Part shown: piece after piece, positions 12,924 to 64,000 of the stretch
How positions within the stretch are numbered: the first letter of the stretch is position 1
Layout: each line of letters opens with the position of its first letter
DNA from: Alphaproteobacteria bacterium
Lineage (GTDB): Bacteria > Pseudomonadota > Alphaproteobacteria > UBA9219
Assembly (NCBI GenBank): GCA_041908065.1
Contig: JAYRGC010000028.1
Location: 8,206-72,205, forward strand
Length of the DNA: 64,000 nt
Reading direction: 5' to 3'
Made by a program: the position numbers and the translations under genes
The notes under the pieces: generated by a model
The model's database searches: none
Seen by the model: only the letters and a program-made list of their open reading frames with translations
Told to the model about the DNA's origin: nothing

Positions 12924-12997
12924 TGGGGGATCGTCTAGCGGTAGGACAACAGATTCTGACTCTGTTTACCGTGGTTCGAATCCACGTCCCCCAGCCA
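12924..12997 (+). tRNA. tRNA-Gln (anticodon CTG)
   Basis: Cloverleaf by eye: acceptor TGGGGGA/TCCCCCA, anticodon loop TTCTGAC, T-arm CGTGGTTCGAATCCACG, encoded CCA. Confidence 0.9.
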
Positions 12998-16261: not shown

Positions 16262-16337
16262 GGGGCCATAGCTCAGCTGGGAGAGCGCGACAATGGCATT
16301 GTCGAGGTCAGGGGTTCGATCCCCCTTGGCTCCACCA
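16262..16337 (+). tRNA. tRNA-Ala (anticodon GGC)
   Basis: Acceptor GGGGCCA/TGGCTCC with G3:U70, anticodon loop ATGGCAT, T-arm AGGGGTTCGATCCCCCT, encoded CCA. Confidence 0.9.
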
Positions 16338-59512: not shown

Positions 59513-60187
59513 ATGACAGCAAAAAACGAAAACCGCCCGTTGCCGCGCGGTATCCGCAACCATAACCCCGGCAATATCCGGCGCAATGGCGACCCGTGGC
59601 AGGGGCTGGCCGAACGCCAAGGCGATGTGGAGTTCTTTACCTTCAAAGACCCCATTTACGGCATTCGTGCGCTGGCGCGGACGCTGATCGCCTATCAAGA
59701 CAAACACGGTCTGCGCTCTATTCGCCAGATCATCTCGCGCTGGGCGCCGCCGGTGGAGAACAATACCAATGCCTATGTTCGGGCGGTGGCGGCCAATACG
59801 GGATTGGATGCAGATCAGCCTCTCGACATGCACCGTTTCGATCATCTTCTGCCTCTGGCGAAGGCGATCATCCGGCATGAGAACGGCCAGCAGCCCTACA
59901 CCGACACGCAACTCACCAAGGCGCTGGTATTGGCGGGTGTAGAACCGGCAAAACCCAGCCTGCAGCAAACCCGTACCGTCAAGGGCGGACAGGCCGCGAC
60001 GGCTGCCACGGCAGGCTTGGGCGTGGTGGAAGCCGTTCAGCAGACTATTGATCCTGCCCGCGACGCGCTGGTGGGGCTTGCTCCGTACCTGGAAACCGCA
60101 AAATGGCTGTTGCTGGCCGTCACTTTGATCGGCATCGGCGTCATGCTCTGGGCGCGGATCGATGACCGCCGCAAAGGGCTGCGCTGA
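59513..60187 (+). CDS. putative peptidoglycan hydrolase (phage P5-like lysin) with a C-terminal membrane anchor
   Basis: RGIRNHNPGNIR..PWQG...F..PIYGIRALARTLIAYQDKHGL is a pattern I associate with phage muramidase-like proteins. TM WLLLAVTLIGIGVMLWA near the C-terminus. AAGGAG RBS. Confidence 0.5.
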   Translation: MTAKNENRPLPRGIRNHNPGNIRRNGDPWQGLAERQGDVEFFTFKDPIYGIRALARTLIAYQDKHGLRSIRQIISRWAPPVENNTNAYVRAVAANTGLDADQPLDMHRFDHLLPLAKAIIRHENGQQPYTDTQLTKALVLAGVEPAKPSLQQTRTVKGGQAATAATAGLGVVEAVQQTIDPARDALVGLAPYLETAKWLLLAVTLIGIGVMLWARIDDRRKGLR

Positions 60188-60426
60188 TGTGGACGGTCAT
60201 TAAAGCCTGGCTCTCCGGCAACGCGCTGCGCCTTATCGGGTGGAGCGTGGCGGCGTTGTCGGTGGCCGCGGTGCTGTTCGGTGCGCGGCAGGCTGGCCGC
60301 AATGCCGAGCGTGTCGATCAACTTAGAAAATCATTGGAGGTAAAAGATGCTCAACTTCGTGCGACGTTGGATGCTCCTCGCAATCGCGGTGAGCTTGTTG
60401 ACCGCCTGCGCGACGGCAAATTCTGA
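60187..60426 (+). CDS. i-spanin-like protein
   Basis: N-terminal TM LRLIGWSVAALSVAAVLF followed by a charged helical periplasmic part. ATGA-coupled to the lysin. Confidence 0.6.
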   Translation: MWTVIKAWLSGNALRLIGWSVAALSVAAVLFGARQAGRNAERVDQLRKSLEVKDAQLRATLDAPRNRGELVDRLRDGKF

Positions 60427-60583
60427 TCCGGCCTGCGTTTGCCCACCGATCAGGAAGTATGACCGGGAATTTCAACGTAAGTTGGCTGAAGAAATCGAGG
60501 TCGCGTCTGCCGATGCGGCTTTTCCGATCGCGCTGCAGGATTACGCTTTGCTAAGGATACAAATCCGCAAGGGGTGTCCTTAG
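60347..60583 (+). CDS. o-spanin-like outer-membrane lipoprotein
   Basis: Signal peptide plus lipobox LLTAC. Starts inside the i-spanin gene in another frame and extends beyond it. Confidence 0.65.
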   Translation: MLNFVRRWMLLAIAVSLLTACATANSDPACVCPPIRKYDREFQRKLAEEIEVASADAAFPIALQDYALLRIQIRKGCP

Positions 60584-60828: not shown

Positions 60829-60866
60829 CGATCACCAGAGATCTTCTCTGGTGATCGTTTGGTTTT
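60829..60866 (+). terminator. 13-bp-stem perfect hairpin plus T-tract (terminator/attenuator or operator)
   Basis: CGATCACCAGAGA tct TCTCTGGTGATCG followed by TTTGGTTTT, about 12 nt upstream of the RBS of ORF 60879. Confidence 0.55.
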
Positions 60867-60878
60867 AAGGAGACCGTT

Positions 60879-61085
60879 ATGACGAATGATAATAAAAAAG
60901 ACCCCATGCGCGCTGGACTGGACGGCGCGGCAAATTCCCCTGAAATCATCGCGGCGGAGTTAAGGCTGATGGCTGCAGGGGATGATCGATATCAGCGCTT
61001 TACTTATATGTCGCCGTGGATCAAGAACATCTGGAATGCCGCTGCCGATATTATTGAAGACTTAAATAAAAAGCAGATGCATTAA
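60879..61085 (+). CDS. small hypothetical protein
   Basis: 68 aa with an AAGGAG RBS. Convergent with the ATPase gene, with the stops 6 nt apart. Confidence 0.4.
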   Translation: MTNDNKKDPMRAGLDGAANSPEIIAAELRLMAAGDDRYQRFTYMSPWIKNIWNAAADIIEDLNKKQMH

Positions 61086-61091
61086 GTCTAT

Positions 61092-63557
61092 CTATGATTT
61101 GGCGACCAGATTGATATTGATATCCCCGCAGCCGCATCTCAGCGCTTCCTTATCACCGCGATCCGGAACCACATAAAGCAGCTCGTTACATTTCTGGCAC
61201 TCGAACAGCTCTGTCAGTTTTTTGAAGCCACTGGCAACTGGCTGAAAGTCGTTTTTATTCAGGGATGCCCATTGCTCATTGTAATGAACCGAGCCGTTTA
61301 TCTGCCATTGATCAAGATCGGTTTCTTTTTTTGCCTCATCTATGGCTGTATCCAAAGCTTCAATTTGGGTTTTCTTGTCCGCTTGTCCCCATGAATCTGC
61401 GGCTTTTTTTCCATCCTTCAAAAGATTTTTTAGGCGCGATACGCCGGGCGGCATTAAATCACCAAGTGTGAATTGTGCGTCACCACGGAAAACGACTTGC
61501 GCGCGCAGGCGGTGGCAGGCCTCTTTCGAGAAATACTCTAGATAATGCCGCAACAGGCTGGCTGCCGCTCTGACATCGTTTTTAGCGAGATCGGCTTCAA
61601 TTTCCTTCCATACGTCACGGCCATTCCATTCTGTCGGGCCGAGATCAACGCTCCATGTTCTGAAATGCGCGAATCCTGCGTTCTTCTTGATCAAACCCGC
61701 GCTTTGCATGTGCCGGAGCCAGATATCATCATGTGTCGTCATTATGAATTGGGTATTCGGGAACTTCTGTTTTAACAGGCTGCACACTTCACGCCGATGC
61801 GCGGAATCAACCGACATAAGAACGTCATCGAGAACGGCGAAGGTGAAATTCTTGCCGAGCAAATGCTCCATGAGCGCAAGATAAAGGCAAAGACCCATGC
61901 CGTCCTGGTGGCCTTCGCTATGATATGCGCCGGGCGGGAAAAAGCCGCGCCCGTAAAAGTCGACGCCAAAGCCGAGCTTGCCCATCGAAGGAGTCAACTG
62001 CGCTTCAAATTTGCTTTCATCGTCTTGATTGATAATGCGGTAAAGATTTCTGAAAGCGGTTTCGACGTTCTTGTAAATAGTGTTGAGTTCGGCGGTTACG
62101 ACTTCCCCATACTTTTCTAGCACCTTCGCAGAATGTTCTGCTGCCGCCTTGCATGTTTCCAGTTGCCGCGACTGGGTGCGGAAATTCTCCAGCCGTACTT
62201 GCCCCTCGACAAGATAATCGCGGGCCGCAACCTGCAGGGATGGTTCAGGGATTTCAGTTACGGCTTTGTTGATTTCGCTAAGTTTTTCTTCAATGGCGGC
62301 AATGTTGCATGCATCGCCTTCAAACGCTTTTATTGTGTCTGCCAAAGGCAAGAATGCCCGTATCTGTCTGGCAGCATCCGTCAGCGTCTTGCTTTCATCC
62401 TTGAGCGCCTGCACATCGATCGGTGCCGTGAAAAGCGGGCCGTATTTCGCCACGGTACCGAGCGCGGCCGCCAAGCCTTCCAACGACGCAGCGATGGGCA
62501 AAATCCGTTTTTCCAGCTTTTCCTTTTTTTCTTTTACTGCGGCCAGCTTTTGAAGTTTCTGATTTACAACAGACTTGAATTCTTCCGGCTTCCATTCCGT
62601 ATCGCACACAGGGCAATGTTCATCGTCATATAATTTTAATGCCGATTGCAGAAGGCTTTCATGCGTCAGCTTGCCGAGACTATCGGCATCCGCGTTCAAA
62701 TCAGTGAGGTCTTTCAAAATAGCCGCGCGGGATTCGATAAAGGCTTTTTCTTTCAACCCGTCGAGCAGTTTTTGCAAAGCCTCAATGTCTTTAAGCGCCT
62801 GCGCTTTCGGCACACGCGATGCCGCCGTTTGACTGCCTTCCGCCGTTGCCAGGCCATCTTTAAAAGATGTATCTTTTTCAATATCTTTCAGCTCTGGCAA
62901 TCCTAAAATGACGCGGCGCTTATTGACTTCAACCAAAACCTCCGGCGTCGACCATTTTGCAATGCCTAACGCTGTGATCAGACTTTCCTTCGCTACGTTC
63001 CTGGCATTTTCGAGAGGTTTGACTCCCTTGGTGTGCGCGTTGCAAATCTTCTGCAATGTGCCGCGCAGGGCTTCAATTTTTTCCAGCCGCAAAAGCGCTT
63101 GGACTTCCTCCGACCGCTTGCTCGGTTCCGCCAAAACATACTGAATAAGCTCACGGCGCGATAATACGAATTCGGGGTGTTGCGCCATATGTTCAATCGC
63201 GGCTTTAACGTCCGCGTCATCCGGAGTAATGGTTGGCTTGCTCGGAGCCTTTACCGTCCGTGTGATAGTCGCTTCTTTATTTAGCGGAAAAATTTTGAAA
63301 GTCAGTGCAACAAAAGCCTGTTCGGGTTTGGAGCGGCTGTCAACGTGCGGGCCGTGGTCTTTGACGGATAATTCGCCGGTGCCGCGACCAGAAAGGCGGG
63401 AGATATTGCCCGTGAGCGCGAATTCGATTGCGTCGACTACGCCGCTTTTGCCTGTGCCATTCGGCCCGCAAACCGCGAAATTTTCCCCGCCTAAATCCAG
63501 GGTCAGATCACGAATGCCTCGGAATTCATGGATTTGGATTTTCTGGATGCGGATCAT
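61092..63557 (-). CDS. Rad50-hook ABC/SMC-like ATPase with a PrrC/RloC-like C-terminal domain (candidate anticodon nuclease / defence protein)
   Basis: Walker A GPNGTGKSG, Walker B/D-loop FAVLDDVLMSVD, H-loop IMTTHD. About 380 aa of helical insert with central HCPVCDTEW. C-terminal LLRHYLEYF ... WQINGSVHY, plus terminal CQKC..CGCG. Confidence 0.55.
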   Translation of the reverse strand: MIRIQKIQIHEFRGIRDLTLDLGGENFAVCGPNGTGKSGVVDAIEFALTGNISRLSGRGTGELSVKDHGPHVDSRSKPEQAFVALTFKIFPLNKEATITRTVKAPSKPTITPDDADVKAAIEHMAQHPEFVLSRRELIQYVLAEPSKRSEEVQALLRLEKIEALRGTLQKICNAHTKGVKPLENARNVAKESLITALGIAKWSTPEVLVEVNKRRVILGLPELKDIEKDTSFKDGLATAEGSQTAASRVPKAQALKDIEALQKLLDGLKEKAFIESRAAILKDLTDLNADADSLGKLTHESLLQSALKLYDDEHCPVCDTEWKPEEFKSVVNQKLQKLAAVKEKKEKLEKRILPIAASLEGLAAALGTVAKYGPLFTAPIDVQALKDESKTLTDAARQIRAFLPLADTIKAFEGDACNIAAIEEKLSEINKAVTEIPEPSLQVAARDYLVEGQVRLENFRTQSRQLETCKAAAEHSAKVLEKYGEVVTAELNTIYKNVETAFRNLYRIINQDDESKFEAQLTPSMGKLGFGVDFYGRGFFPPGAYHSEGHQDGMGLCLYLALMEHLLGKNFTFAVLDDVLMSVDSAHRREVCSLLKQKFPNTQFIMTTHDDIWLRHMQSAGLIKKNAGFAHFRTWSVDLGPTEWNGRDVWKEIEADLAKNDVRAAASLLRHYLEYFSKEACHRLRAQVVFRGDAQFTLGDLMPPGVSRLKNLLKDGKKAADSWGQADKKTQIEALDTAIDEAKKETDLDQWQINGSVHYNEQWASLNKNDFQPVASGFKKLTELFECQKCNELLYVVPDRGDKEALRCGCGDININLVAKS

Positions 63558-63739
63558 GCGTCGCTTTCTCCGAATAAAGCGTCGCGGATCGATTTCTCGC
63601 TGGTTGATTTATCTTCGAGGACGGCTTTTCTCAGGCGCACGGCAGTCTCTTCAAACCCTTTCTCGACAGCGAGAGTCTGAAGAAACTTATCAATGATTTT
63701 TTCCGACACCGTCTGCGGTTCGGCCTTATCGCTGGCCAT
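63554..63739 (-). CDS. small acidic helical protein translationally coupled to the ATPase
   Basis: 61 codons. Its stop overlaps the ATPase ATG (ATGA at 63554-63557). No family recognised. Confidence 0.45.
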   Translation of the reverse strand: MASDKAEPQTVSEKIIDKFLQTLAVEKGFEETAVRLRKAVLEDKSTSEKSIRDALFGESDA

Positions 63740-63859: not shown

Positions 63860-64000
63860 ATGACCCAGAGCCAAGCGGCCAGCATTTTCGACTATCAGCC
63901 CACCCCAGAGGAAATTACAGAATCCTTCCGCGCGGATCTGGCAGAGCTGGAGGAATCCATGGTCGAGCTTGCCAAGCGCATGCAGGATATGGGCGACCAT
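63860..64000 (+). CDS. hypothetical protein, 5' part only (runs off the window)
   Basis: ATG 63860 follows AAGGAG. MTQSQAASIFDYQPTPEEITESFRADLAELEES... Confidence 0.4.
   Translation, partial: MTQSQAASIFDYQPTPEEITESFRADLAELEESMVELAKRMQDMGDH

Follow-up and report, generated by a model that had tools for sequence, protein, structure and literature searches.

A mobile two-gene module pairing a Rad50-like ATPase that carries a C-terminal candidate effector domain with a small helical protein

The stretch of DNA analysed here (the window) comprises 64,000 nucleotides (nt) of contig JAYRGC010000028.1 from an alphaproteobacterial genome, and coordinates refer to window positions unless stated otherwise. 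Close to its right end, at the end of a prophage, two overlapping genes are located on the minus strand. The first encodes a small protein of 61 amino acids (aa) (63554..63739, taken from the list of open reading frames, ORFs), whereas the second encodes an 821-aa ABC ATPase of the Rad50/SMC-like type (61092..63557), which has a helical domain in its C-terminal part and is predicted to contain a zinc hook and a zinc ribbon. The stop codon of the small ORF overlaps the start codon of the ATPase gene in the sequence ATGA. That the two genes form a real module is virtually certain. A preliminary description of this locus had likened the large protein to the anticodon nucleases PrrC and RloC. Our results indicate that the anatomy it proposed is right and the functional analogy reasonable, but that the family assignment is unsupported. 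In the following, L numbers denote the stretches of DNA that contain relatives, with L001 and L002 representing identical copies of the window module.

The head domain of the ATPase is split in two. Its N-terminal half contains the Walker A motif, or P-loop (GPNGTGKSG, residues 31-39; 63441..63467, minus strand), while its C-terminal half (61728..61923, minus strand) comprises a signature-like motif (HSEGHQD, residues 546-552), a Walker B/D-loop segment with 'DD' instead of 'DE' (FAVLDDVLMSVD, residues 573-584) and an H-loop (TTHD, residues 607-610, within IMTTHD at residues 605-610). The two halves are separated by an antiparallel coiled-coil insert (residues ~134-510; 62028..63158, minus strand), as seen in the secondary structure of the full-length AlphaFold model, and the apex of this insert bears a predicted zinc-hook motif, CPVC (C315-P316-V317-C318; 62604..62615, minus strand), embedded in the sequence HCPVCDTEW (residues 314-322). 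Conservation was assessed in an alignment of 157 family members that are 30-60% identical to the window protein, with a median of 43%. In this alignment, K37, S38, S547, G549, Q551, D577, D578, D584 and H609 are invariant, and C315, P316 and C318 are at least 99% conserved. The full-length model (predicted local distance difference test score, pLDDT, 76.5) consists of an N-terminal half-head (residues 1-125), coiled-coil helices (134-510) with a non-helical apex loop containing CPVC (310-323), a C-terminal half-head (520-645), a helical domain (649-783) and a three-stranded zinc ribbon (795-816). It thereby reproduces the split ABC/SMC head, the ~380 helical residues with a CxxC motif at their midpoint and the distinct ~190-aa C-terminal region of the preliminary description, all of whose coordinates and motif residues proved to be correct, including the assignment of C315/C318 to nt 62604-62615.

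Profile and structure comparisons indicate that the ATPase belongs to the SMC/Rad50/LmuB part of the ABC superfamily. Among the Pfam models, the 821-aa protein matched SMC_N (1.1e-18, residues 4-620) and AAA_23 (4.3e-13) but not AAA_13 (at E <= 1). The best PADLOC matches were obtained for LmuB (PDLC03859, 4.6e-28, restricted to residues 149-617) and mad3 (1.3e-22), followed further down by other LmuB models (1e-8 to 1e-15) and by many PtuA models that matched via the Walker A region, and the PrrC model was absent from the matches of the 821-aa protein, contrary to the suggested kinship. RecF, Rad50, SbcC and SMC models from NCBIfam remained far below threshold, with 13-40 bits against cut-offs of 478-1420 (39.5 against 1000 in the case of Rad50_Sulf), and PHROGs returned the SbcC-like phrog_77. 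When analysed alone, the C-terminal half of the head was most similar to mad3, LmuB and PtuA, not to PrrC or PDC-S06. A Foldseek search of the PDB with the full-length model identified the Rad50 subunit of the MRN complex (7zr1, 2.9e-11) as the top match, followed by a YydD model and the heads of SMC, condensin, cohesin and Smc5/6, with LmuB of the Lamassu system (9ux7) at rank 32. Judging from these scores, the likeness to LmuB is one at the level of the clade, not of the family. The module as such is absent from PADLOC-DB v2, and there is no specific Pfam or NCBIfam model for it.

The head is followed by a family-specific, all-alpha domain (residues 649-783; 61209..61613, minus strand), which represents the candidate effector. 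Modelled alone, it reaches a pLDDT of 82 and a predicted TM-score of 0.80 in AlphaFold. Its helices span residues 649-658, 662-684 (including R670 and E674), 698-722 and 726-753, after which a loop with N754 and H758 leads into a kinked helix (759-783). The domain harbours two conserved motifs, LLRHYLEYF (residues 668-676; 61530..61556, minus strand) and WQINGSVHY (residues 751-759; 61281..61307, minus strand), with the family-wide forms LLR[R/H/N]xxE and W-[Q/A/S]-x-N-x3-H. The second of these stretches has a pLDDT below 50 both in the model of the isolated domain and in that of the full-length protein. The residues classed as invariant in this part of the protein are limited to W635, G640, P641, L669, R670, E674, W751, N754, H758, W763 and four cysteines, with R670, E674, N754 and H758 conserved in 100% and W751 in 98% of the aligned sequences. 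The only invariant polar residues are thus the pairs R670-x3-E674 and N754-x3-H758. The four cysteines, which are at least 99% conserved, form the CxxC ... CxC pattern of the predicted zinc ribbon at the very C-terminus (residues 787-816; 61110..61199, minus strand), with C787 and C790 contained in CQKC (787-790), C808 and C810 in CGCG (808-811) and three short beta-strands modelled at residues 795-799, 803-807 and 814-816. The extra terminal knuckle that had been noted at the outset is therefore real. Zinc ribbons commonly bind nucleic acids, and by analogy the one described here probably does so as well. An exhaustive profile search with the C-terminal domain retrieved 883 cluster representatives at 50% identity, all of which show this architecture or are fragments of it.

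Relatives of the large protein are found in a wide range of bacteria. A word-index search yielded 1903 full-length matches with at least 53% identity, with a typical length of ~818 aa in the family, and a scan of one genome per species detected relatives in 222 of ~185,000 species. The counts of partner genes, gene junctions and flanking genes reported below refer to the best 80 of these 222 species, whose proteins are 45-60% identical to the window protein over their whole length. They include Alpha-, Beta- and Gammaproteobacteria, Legionella, Leptospira, Bacteroidota and Patescibacteria as well as Acidobacteriota, Nitrospirota, Verrucomicrobiota, Omnitrophota, Elusimicrobiota and a Mycobacterium. 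A spread over more than ten phyla at this level of identity points to horizontal mobility under strong constraint.

The small ORF consistently accompanies the ATPase gene. A hidden Markov model (HMM) of the small protein detected a homolog immediately upstream of the ATPase gene in 77 of the 80 loci (E = 1e-7 to 1e-28). The three exceptions are two loci without upstream DNA (L095 and L126) and one 5'-truncated copy (L075), so that every intact locus with upstream DNA (77/77), across more than ten phyla, carries the small ORF, which overlaps the ATPase gene by 4 nt in 71 of these cases. This co-occurrence analysis bears out the original suggestion of a 61-aa acidic partner and, as far as gene order can tell, identifies the small protein as an obligate, translationally coupled partner. 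Its acidity is mild, with an isoelectric point of 4.85 and 13 D/E as compared to 10 K/R residues. An N-terminal tail, polar and variable, precedes a core of ~48 residues that forms three short amphipathic helices (VPxxVFxxFLxxL, ExxxRLRKxLLxD and ExALxxALFxE), whose hydrophobic pattern is kept with almost no invariant residue, as is typical for binding subunits and not for enzymes. Searches of Pfam, PADLOC, PHROGs and the PDB yielded no relatives of the small protein, and its 85 database homologs, all listed as hypothetical, are without exception stand-alone proteins of 51-108 aa. Kinship with LmuC, the Rad50-binding helix-loop-helix of Mre11 or a known antitoxin is unsupported, as only designed helical repeats were matched, a result explained by the composition of the protein. 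Coupled to, and placed ahead of, the gene for a potentially toxic effector, the small protein would fit the role of an antitoxin-like silencer or an LmuC-like adaptor. Clustering of the flanking ORFs did not reveal any other family present in more than 5 of the 80 loci, the commonest ones being HsdM, serine recombinases, integrases and helicases of restriction-modification (R-M) systems. Given the lack of a recurrent third gene and the stand-alone nature of the small homologs, the module comprises exactly two genes. In the truncated copy (L075:5400-6200, from Vineibacter terrae), the first ~30 codons of the ATPase gene are missing together with the small ORF, and the upstream sequence is unrelated; to judge from its sequence, this copy is probably inactivated.

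The module is carried by mobile elements, including prophage ends, integrative and conjugative elements (ICEs), plasmids and islands with R-M or prokaryotic Argonaute (pAgo) genes. A 60%-identical copy (L170:9001-20454) occupies the same position in a different prophage with a tail of the gene transfer agent (GTA) type, following a different endolysin of the Phage_lysozyme type, convergent with the late genes and bordered by host metabolic genes on its other side, which suggests a recurrent hotspot for moron insertion in GTA-tail-type siphophages. Another copy with 89% identity (L003:1-7711) lies beside a type I R-M operon and a gene for a Piwi-domain protein (pAgo), surroundings that constitute a typical defence island. 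In ICEs of Legionella pneumophila (L004-L006:6626-8004), ssb and ardA immediately precede the module and a MobA relaxase gene is close by, and a further ICE (L173) encodes TraG/TrwB, a serine recombinase and ArdC ~6 kb from the module. These ssb-ardA and ArdC neighbourhoods echo the linkage of RloC to ArdC (PMC2610378). Other copies are found in islands adjoining integrase genes. On a Rhizobium etli plasmid (L010:11706-18457), genes for a patatin-like protein and an Eco57I-type methyltransferase are found near the module, together with that of another ATPase, which is unrelated, exceeds 714 aa and has the domains SMC_N/AAA_23/AAA_21, a neighbourhood that may represent another defence cluster. 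In total, 40 plasmid records carry the module, with no annotation beyond "AAA family ATPase | hypothetical protein", while a tblastn search of a collection of sequenced phages gave no match to it.

From its architecture, its conservation, the obligate pairing of its genes and its carriage by mobile elements, we infer that the module acts in defence, based on DNA sensing, a nuclease activity directed against RNA and inhibition by the small protein. It is probably a self-contained mobile-element module of the defence or abortive-infection type that has so far gone undescribed, and a role in conflict or defence is likely. In the mechanism that we envisage, the large protein probably serves as a sensor, with foreign or aberrant DNA as the most likely cue, as for Rad50, LmuB and RloC, and probably dimerizes through both the heads and the CPxC zinc hook. 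R670-x3-E674 and N754-x3-H758 would form a HEPN/PrrC-like, metal-independent RNase-type active site in the domain fused in cis, with the zinc ribbon that follows it probably contacting nucleic acid. The 60-70-aa helical protein, produced in a fixed ratio through translational coupling, would serve as an obligate regulatory subunit, analogous to an antitoxin or to LmuC, that most likely silences the effector, or links it to the head or coiled coil, as long as the ATPase has not been triggered. Once activated, the effector would cut RNA, for which tRNA provides a precedent, stop translation and thus block a superinfecting phage or a competing element.

Several known systems provide models for such a mechanism. 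ABC-ATPase sensors are paired with RNase or tRNase effectors in PrrC, RloC, PARIS (AriB) and OLD. The closest counterpart in layout is RloC, which has been defined by an ABC head, a coiled-coil insert with a CXXC motif, a C-terminal Arg-X3-Glu-X36-52-His triad and a length of 658-897 aa (PMC2610378). Both proteins share a split head with a 'DD' Walker B motif, a coiled coil of ~380 aa with a central CxxC, a subsequent all-alpha domain with a conserved R-x3-E followed by N-x3-H and a similar size, and both occur sporadically on mobile elements, with RloC likewise found in some prophages and near anti-restriction genes such as that of ArdC. The module differs from RloC, a single-gene system, by its obligate, coupled partner of 60-70 aa and by its additional, invariant four-Cys zinc ribbon. 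PrrC resembles the large protein in combining an ABC ATPase with a C-terminal nuclease, which is a candidate in the case of the module. Its essential nuclease residues include R320, N321, E324, R349, N352 and H356 (PMC3025547), and two pairs among them, R320-x3-E324 and N352-x3-H356, have counterparts in R670-x3-E674 and N754-x3-H758 of the module, with LLRNLYEK of PrrC resembling the first motif of the module in a shared local context, LLR[N/H]xxE. However, PrrC is only ~380-400 aa long, lacks a coiled coil and a hook, is encoded between hsdS and hsdM/hsdR and is silenced by the R-M enzyme, whereas the large protein of the module has 821 aa and a 377-aa coiled coil, comes with its own small partner and is not embedded in R-M operons (the HsdM family was found in only 5 of the 80 flanks). 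The module is analogous to RloC in its layout, but at the level of sequence it is not a detectable member of the RloC family.

The nuclease domain of PrrC and RloC is of the HEPN type, with the hallmark motif Rx4-6H, and HEPN domains follow a common blueprint in which four helices form an up-down bundle, with an insert separating helices 2 and 3 and a kink in the fourth helix (PMC3710099). The order of helices in our model fits this blueprint: E674 lies in helix 2 (662-684), a helical insert (698-722) comes before helix 3, the His motif occupies a flexible region of low model confidence where helix 3 ends (751-758), and helix 4 is kinked (759-783). The acidic residue that is conserved in helix 2 of HEPN proteins, upstream of the His motif, is also present in the form of the invariant E674. 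The hallmark motif itself is missing, as there is no Arg at positions -5 to -7 from H758. HEPN families that retain the His but lack the Arg, such as Parep1/8, have been documented (PMC3710099). ABC ATPases fused to a C-terminal HEPN RNase, some of them prophage-borne, are known in principle from the APECO1_4465 and ERFG_01251 families, with which the module was compared by description only; the text of that study describes no hook, zinc ribbon or small partner for them (Anantharaman et al., 2013). Among the non-significant Foldseek matches of the C-terminal domain were 1ufb and 2q00 (template modelling scores 0.30-0.44). We take both of these to be HEPN proteins.

The sensor part of the proposed mechanism has its closest parallels in Lamassu and Rad50. 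Like the module, Lamassu (LmuA-LmuC-LmuB, or DdmABC) combines a Rad50-like zinc-hook SMC ATPase with a small accessory subunit and is carried by mobile elements, and it follows the logic proposed here for the module, in which a sensor holds an effector inactive until DNA is sensed. LmuB has a zinc hook, and the small LmuC subunit binds near this hook (bioRxiv 2025.03.14.643221). Unlike Lamassu, in which the LmuC gene usually lies between those for LmuA and LmuB, the module has no separate LmuA gene; instead, the SMC-like protein itself carries the candidate effector at its C-terminus. Its small protein is much smaller than LmuC, unrelated to it in sequence and encoded upstream of the ATPase. 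Membership in Lamassu can be rejected, because there is no LmuA effector gene or other conserved third gene in the 80 loci. Rad50/SbcC, which act together with Mre11/SbcD, provide the best structural matches for the head, coiled coil and hook. They differ from the large protein by a much longer coiled coil and the lack of the extra C-terminal domain, the NCBIfam scores are low, and no adjacent gene for an Mre11/SbcD nuclease was present in the 80 flanks.

A number of results weigh against this reading of the C-terminal domain as a nuclease and of the module as a defence system. On its own, the domain did not match any Pfam or PADLOC model at E <= 10, and the best Foldseek matches of its model, with E = 0.76 in the PDB and E = 0.83 in BFVD, were not significant. 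The direct comparison with known nucleases was made with PrrC, while RloC was set apart by its published definition: the PrrC-seeded searches returned only PrrC, and no RloC was among the 138 loci gathered at that stage. Genuine PrrC proteins were obtained by scanning metagenomes for the back-translated LARP peptide, confirmed by AAA_13 and the PADLOC PrrC model (8e-136) and supplemented with PrrC proteins from viral contigs and plasmids (30-35% identity). In the plasmid set, all seven prrC genes were located between hsdS and hsdM/hsdR, and bona fide prrC genes were present on 24 IMG/VR contigs (L139-L162), indicating that PrrC-type genes also occur on contigs classified as viral. As the C-terminal domain of genuine PrrC gave no AAA_13 match either, this model is uninformative for the nuclease domain, so that the PADLOC PrrC model and our own profiles were used instead. 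The former recognized the C-terminal domain of genuine PrrC with 3e-47 but did not match that of the module at E <= 10. An HMM of the PrrC nuclease domain, used with filters off, detected 0 of ~85 family members at E <= 10. Moreover, hhalign aligned the two C-terminal domains with a probability of only 0.2-0.5% (E = 0.11-0.29, as compared to 0.18-0.44 for reversed controls), and the results stayed at the level of the reversed controls after deletion of the helical segment 706-746 or when segments with single motifs were used. In comparisons of the full-length profiles, only the region from Walker B to the H-loop could be aligned (residues 569-613 with PrrC 203-251, 52% probability). The spacing between E674 and H758 amounts to 83 residues, outside the range of 36-52 in RloC and likewise beyond the wider range of 31-52. 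In addition, the sequences examined share the universal PrrC motifs LR-x3-E and R-x2-N-x2-S-H, the latter including the essential Arg349 (PMC3025547), the hallmark HEPN Arg, which is conserved in RloC as well and whose position is occupied by Trp (W751) in the family; the motif WxNxGSH, on which the suggested kinship had drawn, is not a PrrC motif. With every profile and hhalign test of the C-terminal domain negative, membership in the PrrC/RloC family is unsupported. R670, E674 and H758 of the proposed Arg-Glu-His signature are invariant; of the two observations that the preliminary description had named as speaking against it, the lack of profile or structural similarity was indeed made, whereas the residues turned out to be conserved. 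The proximity of R670, E674, N754 and H758 in a single site is presumed by analogy, and these invariant residues could mark a binding interface instead of an active site. Furthermore, the SSB-ArdA neighbourhoods, which resemble the leading regions of conjugative elements, would also fit an anti-defence or element-maintenance role, the context of one copy (L171) is not obviously that of a mobile element, and a literature search found no paper describing the module.

Considering both sides, we regard the proposal that the C-terminal domain is a nuclease using the R/E/N/H residues as evenly balanced, and the same holds approximately for its more specific form, a HEPN-like RNase effector, which derives from motifs and topology and not from demonstrated homology. 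The entire chain, a two-gene defence module with a sensor ATPase, a fused RNase-type effector and a regulatory small protein, falls slightly short of an even chance, and a tRNA anticodon loop is a rather doubtful choice of substrate. It is possible, though somewhat less likely than not, that the module constitutes an unnamed, pan-bacterial defence system in which a Rad50-hook ATPase independently gained a new C-terminal RNase, HEPN-like and relying on R-x3-E plus W-x2-N-x3-H but without the canonical Arg, with a zinc ribbon behind it, gated by an obligate helical subunit of 60 aa that lacks known relatives. Such a system would be a minimal, fused-effector counterpart of Lamassu that converged with RloC.

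Among the alternatives, the most serious, albeit unlikely, one is a Lamassu- or Rad50-like sensor without a fused nuclease, whose C-terminal domain and ribbon serve as a non-catalytic module for DNA/RNA binding or oligomerization. Its output could then be the ATPase itself, through DNA clamping or compaction, the release of the small protein or a host nuclease recruited in trans. This explanation would account for the absence of a detectable nuclease fold, for the rank of LmuB as the best-matching defence model and its retrieval by Foldseek, for the zinc hook shared with LmuB, near which LmuC binds, and for the presence of a ribbon of a commonly nucleic acid-binding type. However, there is no LmuA-type effector gene or other conserved third gene, the small protein has no LmuC or other PADLOC match and a 60-aa protein with almost no invariant residues is unlikely to be an enzyme or toxin. 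In addition, invariant R, E, N and H residues in an otherwise variable domain look like an active site, not an interface.

It is still less probable that the module benefits its carrier in ways other than defence, acting as an SMC/Rad50-type factor for DNA maintenance, establishment or anti-defence that promotes replication, segregation or entry into new hosts. The position of the Legionella ICE copies directly after ssb and ardA and the ArdC gene near another ICE copy, all typical of leading regions in transfer, the many large plasmids among the carriers and database names such as 'chromosome segregation protein SMC' and 'RecF', even though these reflect the fold, are in line with this notion. 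Yet, the copies at prophage ends follow the lysis genes on the opposite strand, as is characteristic of morons, others reside in R-M/pAgo islands and in chromosomal islands beside integrase genes, the sporadic occurrence is typical of defence genes, and no partner of the Mre11/SbcD or kleisin type is found. Finally, it is improbable that the large protein is a highly divergent RloC orthologue, a wobble-nucleotide-excising anticodon nuclease to which only a small partner, a zinc ribbon and an inserted helical segment were added, because, despite the same domain order, a length within the RloC range, a Walker B 'DD' and D-loop 'SxD' as in PrrC, the invariant R-x3-E and N-x3-H, the partial hhalign match to PrrC and the shared prophage and ArdC contexts, its head fits the LmuB, mad3, PtuA and SMC models better than PrrC or PDC-S06, AAA_13 and all C-domain profiles fail to match, Trp stands in the place of Arg349, Glu and His are too far apart and RloC has no obligate partner gene.

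Confirmation of the proposed defence function would place the module, a compact pair of genes, within the expanding group of immune sensors built on SMC/ABC ATPases. Identities of 45-60% are maintained across its range, which takes in Alphaproteobacteria and Legionella as well as Patescibacteria, Nitrospirota and Leptospira. With the sensor and putative effector united in one polypeptide and a single tiny regulator, it would offer a tractable system to analyze how hook and head signal to a nuclease, a question that also stands for RloC, as no solved RloC structure was among the PDB matches. Moreover, it would show if Trp can stand in for the hallmark Arg in a functional HEPN-type site. Should the C-terminal domain have a role other than that of a nuclease, the module would still be an unexplained, highly constrained cargo of phages, ICEs and plasmids.

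In the window, the module lies directly after the lysis cassette, as already recognized in the preliminary description, and with a GC content of 0.45-0.54, as compared to 0.55-0.61 in the late region of the phage, it is AT-richer than the latter; the recurrence of this moron position in the second prophage (L170) adds to that early observation. The genes upstream of the lysis region are RcGTA-type tail genes (Phage-tail_3/Rcc01698_C, Phage_BR0599, DUF2460 and a tape measure gene). The cassette comprises an endolysin gene (59513-60187; phrog_873, 1.3e-63) and two small, overlapping ORFs on the plus strand (60187-60426, phrog_27122, and 60347-60583, phrog_26778), whose arrangement looks like that of an overlapping i-spanin/o-spanin pair. 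The product of the second ORF has a lipoprotein-like N-terminus (LLTAC). Just past the cassette, a terminator-like hairpin (60829-60857, plus strand; 13-bp stem with 7 GC pairs and a T-rich tail) is probably where the late operon of the phage terminates, ahead of the convergently oriented module. Between this hairpin and the 3' end of the ATPase gene lies a 68-aa ORF (60879-61085, plus strand) that counts among the predicted genes of L001 and L002; it has no PHROG match and was not seen beside other family members. On the other side of the module, a 171-aa ORF without a Pfam or PHROG family starts 120 bp upstream of the small ORF in divergent orientation (63860-64000, plus strand, continuing to ~64375 in L001, where it corresponds to L001:91-606 on the minus strand). 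As seen in L001, the contig reaches only ~465 nt past position 64000, and no hsd genes occur in the window, L001 or L002. The left, apparently non-phage part of the window contains genes for tRNA-Gln(CTG) (12924-12997) and tRNA-Ala(GGC) (16262-16337), both on the plus strand.

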